The position numbers and the translations under genes were made by a program. A stretch of 24,813 bases of DNA. Origin: Patescibacteria group bacterium. Its GTDB lineage: Bacteria > Patescibacteriota > Minisyncoccia > UBA6257 > 02-FULL-45-10c. Shown here piece after piece: positions 14,871 to 24,560 of this stretch; position 1 is the stretch's first letter; each line of letters starts with the position of its first letter. Location of the stretch: assembly GCA_038078395.1 (NCBI GenBank), contig JBBUBH010000030.1:1-24813 (forward strand), in the 5' to 3' direction. The notes below the pieces were generated by a model, which saw only the letters and a list, made by a program, of their open reading frames with translations, was not told the DNA's origin and made no database searches.

Positions 14871-14896
14871 TTTAAAACTAAATATACAGGTGCTTG

Positions 14897-14968
14897 CCAG
14901 GAAGTAGAAATTCAGTGGCTACGCAATTAGTCCTGCAAAGCAGGACTCGCTGAATTTTCACTTCCTGG
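14897..14968 (-). mobile_element. MITE-like element, copy 1 (72 bp)
   Basis: 19-bp imperfect TIRs ccaggaagtagaaattcag/ctgaattttcacttcctgg, flanked by a CTTG direct repeat (14893-14896, 14969-14972). Confidence 0.7.
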
Positions 14969-15002
14969 CTTGAAAAAGTTTTGAGAGAGTTGTAGACTAA
15001 TT

Positions 15003-15038
15003 TTGCATTTTGATTTTTACATTTTTAATTTTTTACAT
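15003..15038. repeat. Lone TTNNATT heptamer arm directly 5' of the tRNA
   Basis: ttgcatt ttgattt ttacatt tttaatt; same unit type as 873-907. Confidence 0.65.
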
Positions 15039-15109
15039 GCCCCCATAGCTCAGTGGTAGAGCAGCTGCCTTTTAAGCAGTTGATCTAGGTCCGATTCCTA
15101 GTGGGGGTA
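15039..15109 (+). tRNA. tRNA-Lys (anticodon UUU), CCA not encoded, slightly atypical
   Basis: Cloverleaf: acceptor GCCCCCA/TGGGGGT, D stem GCTC/GAGC, anticodon stem GCTGC/GCAGT with loop CTTTTAA, T stem CTAGG/CCTAG; promoter TTGAAA(14970)-17-TAGACT. Confidence 0.9.
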
Positions 15110-15194
15110 CTAGATAAAAATTTTCAAGTGCTTGACTTTTTATTTTATTTTAGTTATAAACTTTTTAGTTCATCTCAATAAGGGAGGGTTGAAA

Positions 15195-15386
15195 ATGAAA
15201 GAAGCTCTTGTGGAATTTTGCATTATGGCTGTGATAGGTTTTGCCGTGATTGTTTCCGTTTGTTTCTGTTTCGGATTGACCGCAATGTTGCTTATAGTTG
15301 GAGCGGCAATCTGCTTATTCAAACAAATTTGGAAATTGATTTTTCCAGCTAAAAAGAAATTGTGTCATTGTGACGAAAAGCCATGA
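15195..15386 (+). CDS. Small membrane protein (63 aa), hypothetical
   Basis: SD GGAGGG; long hydrophobic stretch; TTGACT at 15132 upstream. Confidence 0.55.
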
Positions 15387-15450
15387 TCCTGCGGTAAAAT
15401 CTTTTGCTCTTGCAATAACTCCTGAAAAGGAGTTATTTTTTATTATAGTT

Positions 15451-16041
15451 ATGAATAAAGAATTTAAATTGGGATATGCGATAGGATTGGTTATAATTAT
15501 TGCATTGGCAGGAAGTTATTTTATGTTCAATAAAAAAGATAACAGCGGCGGTGAAGCGGAAAAAAATCCGGTTGTTGTTTTGAAAACAAATTTCGGAGAC
15601 ATCAAATTGGAACTTTTTAAAAAAGACGCCGTTAAAACCGTTGCTAATTTTGTGACTTTGGCGCAAAGCGGATTTTATAATGGAACAAAATTTCACCGGG
15701 TTATTCCTAATTTCATGATTCAAGGCGGCGATCCGAACAGTAAAGACAATGACTGGACAAATGACGGAATGGGCGGGCCGGGCTATCAATTTGAGGATGA
15801 GATTAACAGCCATAAGCTGGTCAGGGGGGCTTTGGCGATGGCGAACAGCGGACCCGATACTAATGGAAGCCAGTTTTTTATAGTGACGGCCGAATCAACC
15901 CCGTGGCTTGACGGGCATCATACTGTTTTCGGGACAGTGATTGAAGGAATGGATGCGGTAATCAAGATTGAAAGTTTATCCAAGAATGAAAACGATCATC
16001 CGCTGGAAGATGCGGTTATTAATGGCGTTAGAGTTGAATAA
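15451..16041 (+). CDS. Cyclophilin-type peptidyl-prolyl isomerase with an N-terminal anchor
   Basis: [55 protein letters not shown]; likely start ATG 15451. Confidence 0.96.
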
Positions 16042-16076
16042 AAATTGATATTGTAGTAAATTATTTTATATTGCAT

Positions 16077-22840: not shown

Positions 22841-22879
22841 CCGCGCCTAATTGAAATGAATGGGTTAATAAAAAAGCGA

Positions 22880-23018
22880 AGATTGTTTCTTGTGCGGAAA
22901 CTCCGCAGTGCCGATTGGATTGGTTCCGCCCTGCTAAGCGGGGCGGACAATCGGCGCGAGGTGTAGTGGGCAGCCGCCGCAGGAGCGGCTGAACCGCGGT
23001 TCCGCAAAGAAATAATCT
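22880..23018. repeat. Structured repeat element, diverged copy D in opposite orientation (core 22896-23003), downstream of efp
   Basis: Minus strand ggaacc-[cagccgctcctgcggcggctg]-tacacctcg-cgccgattg-[hairpin]-accaatc-caatcggca-ctgcggagtttcc; same architecture. Confidence 0.75.
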
Positions 23019-23029
23019 GAGCGATAGTT

Positions 23030-23605
23030 CTATTGTTTTGATTTTTCCAATCTTTCCGCGTATTGGCCGGTTTCTGTGTTTATGCGAATTAAATCTCCGT
23101 TATTTACAAAAAGCGGAACCGCAACTTGAGCGCCTGTTTCAAGGATTGCCGTTTTGCTCCCGCCTTGCGCCGTGTTTCCGCGTTCTCCGGGCGGCGTTTC
23201 TTTGACTAATAAATCGGCTTTAATCGGCGGTTTAACGTTCAGAATCTTGTCATCAAGCTTTAATGCCATAACTTCGCTGTTTGGTTTCAGGAATCTGGCT
23301 CCGGCGCCGATTTTGCTTTCTTCCAGCTTAAAGCGGTTTTTTGGATTGCCTTTTTCACAGAACCAGAATTCTCCGCGGTTTGAATAAAGGAAGGTTATGT
23401 TTTCTTTTTCCACGTCAATTTCTGATATCGCTTCGTTCTGATGGAAATTGCGTTCAATAACTTGTCCAGTAAGGAGGTTTTTGATCCTTGTTTTCGCAAC
23501 CGGTTTCCTTTGCTGCATCCTTAAAAATTCGTAATCCAGAACTTCGTATGGAGTTCCTTCAAATTCAAACATCGTGCCGATTTTTAGTTCGTTATAATTT
23601 AACAT
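23030..23605 (-). CDS. efp: Translation elongation factor P
   Basis: Typical three-domain EF-P with TPPGERGNTAQGGSK.A.LETG....VPLFV..GD.IRINT.TG.Y.ER. Confidence 0.96.
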   Translation of the reverse strand: MLNYNELKIGTMFEFEGTPYEVLDYEFLRMQQRKPVAKTRIKNLLTGQVIERNFHQNEAISEIDVEKENITFLYSNRGEFWFCEKGNPKNRFKLEESKIGAGARFLKPNSEVMALKLDDKILNVKPPIKADLLVKETPPGERGNTAQGGSKTAILETGAQVAVPLFVNNGDLIRINTETGQYAERLEKSKQ

Positions 23606-23611
23606 AGGGTT

Positions 23612-23640
23612 AGTTTATGGCTTTTAGCTTACAGAGTCAA
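23612..23640 (-). promoter_or_regulatory. Leaderless-type efp promoter
   Basis: Minus strand TTGACT-17-TAAACT-6nt-ATG. Confidence 0.7.
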
Positions 23641-23690
23641 TGTATCTGTTACTTTTATATCCTAAAATTTAGTTGTAATATGTAAACATG

Positions 23691-23827
23691 CCCCGTAGTG
23701 AAAATTCAGTGGTTGCTAACGCAAAAAAGTTTCACTATTGGACATAATTAAATAAGTAATTAATATATAAATAATTAATTTAAGCTCACGCAACGCAATT
23801 TTGCGTAGCTGAATTTCTACTACGGGG
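23691..23827 (+). mobile_element. MITE-like element, copy 3 (137 bp), at the start codon of the NTP-transferase gene
   Basis: 19-bp imperfect TIRs ccccgtagtgaaaattcag/ctgaatttctactacgggg, flanked by CATG/TATG (3 of 4 match). Confidence 0.7.
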
Positions 23828-23828
23828 T

Positions 23829-24560
23829 ATGAATAAAGTTAAAAAAGCCATTATATTGGCCGGCGGAGGAGGAACCCGCCTTTATCCGGTAACTTTGGAA
23901 ACTCCAAAACCGCTTTTAACGGTAAATAAAAAGCCGATCATCAATTATCTGATAGATATGTTTAAGAAGCATGGCGTGGAGGAAGTGGCGATTGTGGTCA
24001 GGAAAAGCCATTTTGATGATTTTTCTTGGTGGCTCAGAAGGTGGCAGAACGATCTCGGCGGAGTTTGGGTTAATTTGATGGTGGAAGGGGAGCCGATGGG
24101 AACATTGGGATATTGGGCGCATAATTTGCACACCTGGACGGGAAATGATCCATTTTTTCTGACAAACGGCGATGAGCTGAAAGATGTTGATTTATCCGCT
24201 ATGACGGAATATCATCGCAAAACTGGCGCATTGGCGACGATTGCCGCGGTGGAAGTTGCTAATCCGAAAGAATATGGCGTGATTGTTTTTGATGGCGATT
24301 ATATTGATAAATTTTTGGAAAAGCCGGAAAATCCTCCGTCTAATTTCATTTCTTCAGGGCTTTATCTTCTTGACCCCAAAATAAAAGATTTTATTAAAGA
24401 AGAAATTAGCCAGAATAAGAAATTTTTAATGATAGAAAAGGACCTTTTTCCGAAACTGGCGGGAACTAATAATTTATCAGCTTATAAATCAACAGGCAGG
24501 TGGTTTGATTGTGGAAATTTGGAACGTTGGGAAAAGGCAATTAAAGAGTGGGGTAGTTAG
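23829..24560 (+). CDS. Sugar-phosphate nucleotidyltransferase (NTP_transferase; GDP-mannose pyrophosphorylase-like)
   Basis: AIILAGGGGTRL.P.T...PKPLL, EPMGTLG, NGD, YGV, FLEKP, GLY, W.D.G. Confidence 0.92.
   Translation: MNKVKKAIILAGGGGTRLYPVTLETPKPLLTVNKKPIINYLIDMFKKHGVEEVAIVVRKSHFDDFSWWLRRWQNDLGGVWVNLMVEGEPMGTLGYWAHNLHTWTGNDPFFLTNGDELKDVDLSAMTEYHRKTGALATIAAVEVANPKEYGVIVFDGDYIDKFLEKPENPPSNFISSGLYLLDPKIKDFIKEEISQNKKFLMIEKDLFPKLAGTNNLSAYKSTGRWFDCGNLERWEKAIKEWGS

Follow-up and report, generated by a model that had tools for sequence, protein, structure and literature searches.

The closest described relatives of the system reported here are the Ssn nucleases. These single-domain GIY-YIG proteins of ~94 amino acids bind to their cognate hairpin repeat, and their cleavage, immediately upstream of this repeat, is confined to single-stranded DNA; the opposite strand, double-stranded DNA and RNA are not cut (Chenal et al., Nat Commun 2025, PMC11893778). 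The genes are typically flanked by the repeat, which also occurs genome-wide. The authors see an insertion-sequence-like layout in this arrangement and raise a mobile origin as a hypothesis only, and their paper makes no mention of target duplications, start codons, tRNA sites or bacteria of the candidate phyla radiation (CPR) (PMC11893778). To date, the only explanation offered for the hairpin repeats of Ssn is a control of transformation in Neisseria, and a 2006 survey of the GIY-YIG family treated the stand-alone prokaryotic domains as vertically inherited. The present analysis concerns three short inverted repeats in a contig of a Patescibacteria group bacterium (JBBUBH010000030.1, assembly GCA_038078395.1); the whole contig of 24,813 nucleotides is called the window and is numbered C30 among the contigs of this genome. 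With a probability of about three in four, these repeats are gene-less copies, similar to transposable elements of the miniature inverted-repeat kind (MITEs), of a family of very small mobile elements found across the Patescibacteria (CPR). Longer copies with the same ends contain a gene for a small GIY-YIG nuclease. Full-text searches of the published literature returned no description of hairpin transposons bearing a GIY-YIG gene, of start-codon targeting or of MITEs in CPR bacteria.

The genome (626 kb in 102 contigs, 40% GC, 83% complete) originates from Hainich groundwater metagenomes; among named organisms, Patescibacteria such as Harrisonbacteria are the closest to it. The three copies listed in the original prediction were all recovered by reading the sequence, with the same coordinates, ends and flanks (Table 1). 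Each starts with CC and ends with GG, and carries GTGAAAA in one arm and GTAGAAA in the other. The outer bases covary as had been proposed: copies 1 and 2 have CCAGGAA and copy 3 has CCCCGTA, the two arms of each copy matching each other. The end motif CCNNNNAGTRRAAA is present six times in the window, compared with 0.24 times in shuffled sequences, and none of 100 shuffles reached six. Folded as single-stranded DNA, copy 1 has an energy of -20.2 kcal/mol, corresponding to z = -7.8 relative to shuffles; copies 2 and 3 have z = -6.0 and -4.7, respectively. In an Rfam search of the window, the only match above threshold was the tRNA-Lys, and no family matched the repeats. Weak Rfam matches of copy 2 to microRNA precursors were attributed to chance, the copy being a long hairpin.

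Table 1. Copies of the repeat family and related sites in the window
Feature	Coordinates	Strand	Remarks
Copy 1	14897-14968 (72 bp)	minus	short class, gene-less; between GDSL-lipase gene and tRNA-Lys
Copy 1, arms	14897-14916 and 14949-14968		read on the minus strand, the GTGA arm leads; GC-rich hairpin at the tip
Copy 1, left duplication CTTG	14893-14896	none	identical to 14969-14972
Copy 1, right duplication CTTG	14969-14972	none	read directly
Copy 2	17329-17465 (137 bp)	plus	long class, gene-less; between secD and secF
Copy 2, arms	17329-17348 and 17446-17465	plus	
Copy 2, left duplication TATG	17325-17328	plus	1 nt past the SecD stop codon (17322-17324)
Copy 2, right duplication TATG	17466-17469	plus	ATG at 17467-17469 is the SecF start; a 296-codon open reading frame follows
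Copy 3	23691-23827 (137 bp)	plus	long class, gene-less; upstream of nucleotidyl-transferase gene
Copy 3, arms	23691-23710 and 23808-23827	plus	
Copy 3, left flank CATG	23687-23690	plus	three of four bases as in the right flank
Copy 3, right flank TATG	23828-23831	plus	NTP_transferase gene starts with the ATG at 23829-23831
Empty target site, peptidyl-prolyl isomerase gene	15450-15453	plus	single TATG at the start codon; filled in the sister species

The possibility that the three copies stand alone was dismissed by a genome-wide search, which gave 64 single ends and at least 23 clean pairs; the genome contains ~30 copies overall, and some of its contigs terminate in these repeats. Matching ends were found in 8 of 22 genomes of the same family, while controls with the reversed pattern gave none. 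A scan of species-representative genomes with a 15-base pattern (596 Gb, in which unpaired matches are expected chance hits) yielded 70 further paired copies, mostly in CPR genomes. Together with the 23 copies of this genome, they form a pooled set of 93, to which the counts of flanks and paired positions given below refer. The sizes fall into three classes, 56-94, 121-155 and 306-327 bp. The identical length of copies 2 and 3, to which the original prediction had drawn attention, is correct and, in view of these three size classes, not special by itself. Gene-less copies (56-155 bp) have no coding capacity of their own, just short variable frames entered from an upstream ATG.

Insertion duplicates 4 bp of the target, mostly TATG. 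The two flanks are identical over 4 bp in 61 of the 93 copies and over 5 bp in only three, and a 3-bp duplication is seen in about six. Position by position, the identity between the flanks amounts to 78-90% within the 4-bp register vs. 12-37% just outside it, which rules out a 3-bp or 5-bp duplication as the rule. The flanks are TATG/TATG in 37 copies and, in the opposite orientation, the complementary CATA/CATA in seven; the orientation of the element relative to the target is biased by about 5:1. As the ATG of this target is the start codon of a host gene, insertion restores one start codon on the downstream side of the element. Of the 14 copies in this genome that have an ATG upstream, 12 are directly followed by an open reading frame (ORF) of 117 to at least 499 codons. 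The genes behind such copies include secF, adenylate kinase (adk), lysyl-tRNA synthetase (lysS), an elongation-factor-like GTPase and scpB; the genes adjoining the copies have no function in common. In the other genomes, 38 of 40 ATG-flanked copies precede an ORF that has 60 codons or more or runs off the locus, and the CATA-flanked copies are mostly situated on a start codon of the opposite strand.

The signals in front of the target are of several kinds. A -10-like hexamer is located 12-15 nt upstream of the ATG in several upstream flanks, consistent with leaderless or nearly leaderless transcripts; other upstream flanks contain Shine-Dalgarno-like purine runs, and secF is coupled to secD. 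Since the leader types differ (leaderless, Shine-Dalgarno-like, coupled), the common factor is the start codon. Insertion also recurs at T-tracts of terminators and at the TTGA of -35 boxes. Genes such as secF, adk, lysS and that of the elongation-factor-like GTPase are thus placed behind a hairpin of 64-146 nt, inserted between their translation signals and their start codon, which raises the question of how essential genes are expressed behind a hairpin in highly streamlined genomes. Translational coupling via the short upstream frame was rejected: this frame stops 51-104 nt before the host ATG in 12 of 13 ATG-flanked copies without a gene. An exception is the 64-bp copy at C89:955, in which the short upstream frame and the host ATG overlap. 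For the long copies, an outward promoter conserved in their AT-rich half was rejected as well, as boxes resembling -35 and -10 elements occur in some of them (the copy at 23691 and one on C50) and are not conserved. As a guess, the closed stem might bring the upstream signals next to the rebuilt ATG, allowing the host gene to be translated.

Two short copies are found in frame inside glycosyltransferase-like ORFs (C17:3275-3355 and C78:881-952), to which they add 25-28 residues of the form PGS(E/R)TS...(S/T)TSW. In this, they resemble the Rickettsia palindromic elements, which are also palindromic repeats able to sit in frame inside protein-coding genes. The family described here differs from the latter by its location, mostly at start codons or between genes, and by a known candidate for the mobilizing gene.

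Comparison with a sister species (GCA_964358815.1, contig CAYHQE010000009.1) reveals occupied and empty versions of the same sites. Synteny with the window extends over ~9 kb, with SecF 89% identical and a DNA identity of 83-86%. The alignment breaks exactly at 17327|17466: copy 2 is absent from the sister species, where the SecD-SecF junction reads ..AAAATAATATAAT-ATG-TTTGAT.. with a single TATG. In 20 same-family genomes, too, this junction is free of the element. The sister species, in turn, has a copy of 138 bp, flanked by TATG/TATG, on the start codon of the peptidyl-prolyl isomerase (PPIase) gene (locus L261:889-1026). This copy is 88% identical to window copy 3, which lies at a different locus, and belongs to the same subfamily, as do the copies at C48:223 and C50:6501. 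Occupancy is, hence, reciprocal, the SecF start being filled here and empty in the sister species, and the PPIase start empty here and filled there. The orthologous empty sites thus keep a single TATG, as had been anticipated, with an indel of 5-6 nt beside it. The outcomes named in advance as refuting the prediction, such as empty sites with both 4-mers or a lack of further copies, did not occur. The inverted repeats, the 4-bp duplication, the many dispersed copies and these differences in presence between sister species support the original view that the copies behave as non-autonomous mobile elements.

The ends of the element form a well-defined stem. When position i from the left end is set against position i from the right end in all copies, a stem of 20 bp appears: 18 of the 20 positions are Watson-Crick pairs in at least 93% of the copies, position 20 in 78%, and pairing collapses from position 21. 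Positions 3, 4, 5, 6, 14, 18, 19 and 20 each show two to five types of Watson-Crick pair; hence, pairing is maintained by changes on both arms. Positions 1-2 (C-G), 7-9 and 12-13 are invariant. Inside this invariant part is a tandem mismatch, G·T at position 10 in 93 of 93 copies and A·C at position 11 in 92. A fully complementary form of these two positions was never seen, though the searches would accept such ends, and the segment 7-13 (AGTGAAA / AGTAGAA), tandem mismatch included, is without variation. The mismatch exists only in a self-folded single strand, and the hairpins of the two strands are not the same (G·T then A·C vs. A·C then G·T). Among the short copies, the interior is found in either orientation relative to the mismatch (C78 and C77 vs. 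C13 and window copy 1); among the gene-bearing copies, the two orientations number 13 and 3. Recognition is probably by structure and sequence jointly. The proposal that structure rather than sequence is recognized probably holds in its first half, in agreement with the covarying positions, whereas the fixed positions 1-2 and 7-13 suggest that the sequence matters too.

A single copy in this genome carries an ORF. At C41:5900-6224 (325 bp, TATG/TATG), the same arms surround an ORF of 92 amino acids at C41:5927-6202, the product of which is a bare GIY-YIG catalytic domain (Pfam PF01541, E 5.6e-17, residues 13-79); the UPF0213 proteins 1zg2 and 1ywl are the nearest solved structures. ORF-bearing copies with these arms number at least 16, in 16 genomes of several CPR phyla; they measure 306-327 bp and have nothing else inside, and a host start codon directly adjoins 12 of these units. 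Homologues of the C41 protein, with 55-77% identity, are present in Saccharibacteria, Portnoy-, Doudna-, Wolfe-, Gottesman- and Komeilibacteria and other Parcubacteria. The full-length parent of the family is, thus, likely to be a unit of ~310 bp that consists of two pairing 20-nt arms and one gene for a ~90-amino-acid, single-domain GIY-YIG protein related to Ssn and UPF0213. Mobilization by a transposase yet to be named was part of the original prediction; a concrete candidate can now be proposed for the mobilizing enzyme, this nuclease encoded between identical arms, which is not a classical transposase. Use of the host start codon for the nuclease ORF was considered and dropped as a rule, being in frame in five of 16 units, about the level of chance. 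A GIY-YIG homing endonuclease gene was rejected as a description of the unit, given the dozens of unrelated sites and a bare catalytic domain that lacks an added DNA-binding domain.

The target of the C41 copy (C41:5888-6240 with its surroundings) is a TATG in a DegT-type aminotransferase gene, three codons from its start (MIPY|GHQSID...), and the frame of this gene now stops after six codons. This insertion may be recent and disruptive.

In a maximum-likelihood tree of 81 small GIY-YIG proteins, 16 of the 18 proteins found between arms of this type fall into one clade of 21 (support 91/85), together with two partial ones and three with other flanks; the remaining two arm-type rows are unresolved at the base. 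The labels for genomic context are clustered on the tree to a degree reached in none of 200 label shuffles. Each of the other arm types has a nuclease clade of its own, and the same is true for the nucleases beside tRNA-Cys or tRNA-Met genes. Host phyla are interleaved inside the arm-type clade, a pattern that points to horizontal spread.

The unit has much in common with the Ssn systems: a single-domain GIY-YIG gene of ~90 amino acids with a hairpin-forming repeat on both sides, the repeat being also scattered through the genome. Unlike in Ssn units, where each flank forms a hairpin of its own, the two flanks here pair mutually to give a single stem of 20 bp, in which the tandem mismatch is fixed. 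The sharp CC...GG ends, the 4-bp duplication, the gene-less derivatives in three size classes and the strong preference for start codons are further differences. Both kinds of unit are found in this genome. At C48:3985-4268, a GIY-YIG gene (94 amino acids) lies between two inverted GTCATTCC..GGAATCCAG hairpins, the whole unit spanning C48:3950-4299. These hairpins match the published NTS/SRM motif of Neisseria almost exactly (GTCATTCCCGCGAAAGCGGGAATCCAG), and a third one is located on C95. The C48 unit represents the canonical Ssn type in a CPR bacterium. The arm-type protein shares 35% identity over 71 residues with this NTS-flanked homologue, and its NCBIfam match is below threshold.

The copies are also similar to bacterial MITEs, which are short, non-coding and numerous, with terminal inverted repeats, a target duplication of fixed length and a longer relative that has their ends in common. 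Every structural trait of MITEs that was tested is present, save for a recognized transposase in the parent. The latter is only ~310 bp long here and encodes no DDE, HUH, serine or tyrosine transposase. In comparison with, for example, the Correia elements of Neisseria and their TA duplication, the ends covary and the target is a TATG at start codons.

For the movement itself, a route can be proposed in which the arm-type nuclease acts on the element as a single strand folded into a hairpin, as only in this form does the mismatch exist and do the two strands differ. The enzyme would read the invariant AGTGAAA/AGTAGAA with its mismatch, as well as the stem, and would cut at the foot of the stem, by analogy with the Ssn nucleases, which cut beside their cognate hairpin. 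It would also mobilize the gene-less copies in trans. The nuclease being hydrolytic, the strands are assumed to be rejoined via a host ligase or replication-based copying. Recognition of the folded strand would explain why pairing is under selection, why the mismatch is never repaired and why the orientation is biased ~5:1. These elements would then be the smallest autonomous transposable elements known in bacteria (~310 bp), inserted through a new single-strand GIY-YIG hairpin route, with a 4-bp duplication, onto start codons. This last, wider proposal is tentative and slightly more apt to fail than to hold; there is a substantial chance that the mechanism of movement is new.

Related routes are known. 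In IS200/IS605 and REP/RAYT elements, a hairpin is recognized as a single strand, as is proposed here, with strand polarity, and the elements can be very small. However, these depend on an HUH tyrosine transposase and have subterminal hairpins and no duplication, in contrast to the GIY-YIG enzyme, the hairpin formed by the ends themselves and the 4-bp duplication seen here. Because of the different enzyme and the presence of a duplication, the family was assigned to neither. The attC sites of integrons are likewise folded single-strand sites, in which the arms differ in sequence yet remain paired and conserved unpaired bases identify the strand. The elements described here differ from them in that they have no R/L core sites, are dispersed instead of arrayed and have a target duplication, and neither an integron integrase nor any other tyrosine recombinase was found in the 83%-complete genome.

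Several observations weigh against movement of the family by its own nuclease along such a route. A GIY-YIG nuclease hydrolyses DNA, and strand joining is not known for such enzymes; a pure single-strand 'peel and paste' route, moreover, does not give a 4-bp duplication. Where the flanks are unequal, the downstream one is nearly always TATG, which is not what a simple model of staggered cuts predicts. One alternative is that the element brings one TATG along and joins beside a similar 4-mer. The empty sites (window 15441-15453 and L261:1490-1503) are 5-6 nt longer than the filled ones minus the element and one TATG. Both read TAT-N2-3-TATG, and the junctions are imperfectly clean at 83-86% nucleotide identity. 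This excess may be ordinary indel noise in diverged AT-rich spacers, or it could be a footprint of the insertion chemistry. In this genome, only one copy bears the ORF, and it is the one three codons inside the aminotransferase gene. The three window copies are fixed in every population contig of the species, as established on contigs with identical SecF, GDSL-lipase or NTP-transferase proteins. When contigs of four runs were aligned to the window, one low-depth joint without the element was identified as the allele of the sister species, which rules it out as a within-species insertion polymorphism, and a pattern scan of the metagenomes for the empty SecD-SecF site found none. Transposition was not observed, nor was an excised intermediate detected.

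The most serious competing explanation is that another enzyme, for example a transposase left unassembled in the 83%-complete genome, moves the elements and that the GIY-YIG gene is a homing-type passenger in the loop. This is unlikely. The gene is present in just one of ~30 copies here, GIY-YIG enzymes are the classic homing endonucleases, and the genome is in 102 contigs, some of which end in repeats. Against these points, the unit of gene and arms, with 306-327 bp and nothing else inside, recurs in 16 genomes of several phyla, and the nuclease clades follow the arm type. For related small GIY-YIG genes, binding to the flanking hairpin repeats has been described (PMC11893778). Searches for DDE transposases (PF01609, rve, PF13701) and TnpB gave no match in the genome at its 83% completeness. 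The tyrosine recombinase domain PF00589, that of Xer-type proteins included, was also without a match, which at this completeness may be an assembly gap.

Still less probable, at most a slight chance, is mobilization by a RAYT-like HUH (Y1) transposase, in the manner in which REP-associated tyrosine transposases (RAYTs) act on REP hairpins. A Y1_Tnp gene is present on C33 (about 5518-6195), such enzymes recognize DNA hairpins, and GTAG, which is typical of the feet of REP sequences, occurs in the arms. The C33 gene is, however, flanked by a palindrome of its own (AAGGTC..GACCTT, five copies) and not by these arms, and single-strand transposition by HUH enzymes proceeds without the target duplication that is found here over 4 bp. 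Given the null searches and the different palindrome on C33, both the classical transposases and the RAYT gene were discarded as partners. The C33 unit itself (C33:5466-6260) is made up of the HUH gene and the flanking palindrome AAGGTCTTGCGATGACCTT, one of the five genome copies of which lies inside the gene.

That the repeats are immobile cis-acting 5'-leader hairpins, terminators or protein-binding sites held in place by function would suit their strongly conserved stems and their frequent regulatory positions (start codons, terminator T-tracts and -35 boxes), but it is hardly credible and is largely refuted by the presence/absence data (the differing occupancy in the sister species and the SecD-SecF copy absent in 20 relatives), as well as being at odds with duplicated flanks at unrelated sites, neighboring genes without a common function, two copies in frame inside coding sequences and the lack of an Rfam family match.

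If the movement is driven by the nuclease, the few enzymes that mobilize DNA would include a bare GIY-YIG domain, and the lower size limit of an autonomous element would fall to ~310 bp. Such an element would be a transposon without a transposase, and nucleases of the Ssn type would gain a natural role. The invariant mismatch and the many variants of the arms would also provide ready-made pairs of substrate and enzyme for tools acting on single-stranded DNA. For annotation, the inserts yield false short ORFs, move the predicted start codons and break assemblies.

The genomes of the family hold one to 10 small GIY-YIG genes each, in 0.5-0.9 Mb, and arms of other types occur as well. At least five further arm families, also with CC...GG ends and abutting ATG, each enclose their own GIY-YIG clade (loci L243, L245, L244, L033, L040, L247, L248, L249 and L252, with gene-less forms in L098 and L102). 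Among these other types are CCCGGTGCTACAACTTCGA, CCCGTTAGAGCC, CCCTGTTAAATAA and CCCACACATAACTTACAC. Two of these further families, in gene-less form, occupy the SecD-SecF junction in other genera.

A different location is seen for 36 of the 81 small GIY-YIG homologues, which adjoin a tRNA gene: Cys-GCA in CPR bacteria, Met-CAT in Weeksellaceae, and Arg, Ser, Gln, Leu and Thr (loci L028-L030, L037, L043, L052, L056, L063, L253-L256 and L258; Bacteroidota, L031-L070). In many cases, the opposite flank of the gene carries a partial duplicate of the tRNA. The same protein family seems to have a second mode of insertion here, directed at tRNAs.

The window also contains other repeats. A second, unrelated family of ~121 nt, with its own inverted ends and 74-79% identity, is present at 18365-18485, 22716-22836 and 24567-24687. 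These repeats begin at, or within ~8 nt of, the stop codons of three genes and are partly present in the sister species. Finally, a motif of 24-33 nt with a small CTCC..GGGG hairpin is situated between consecutive small genes at 7274-7306, 8328-8360, 8902-8934 and 9643-9675.

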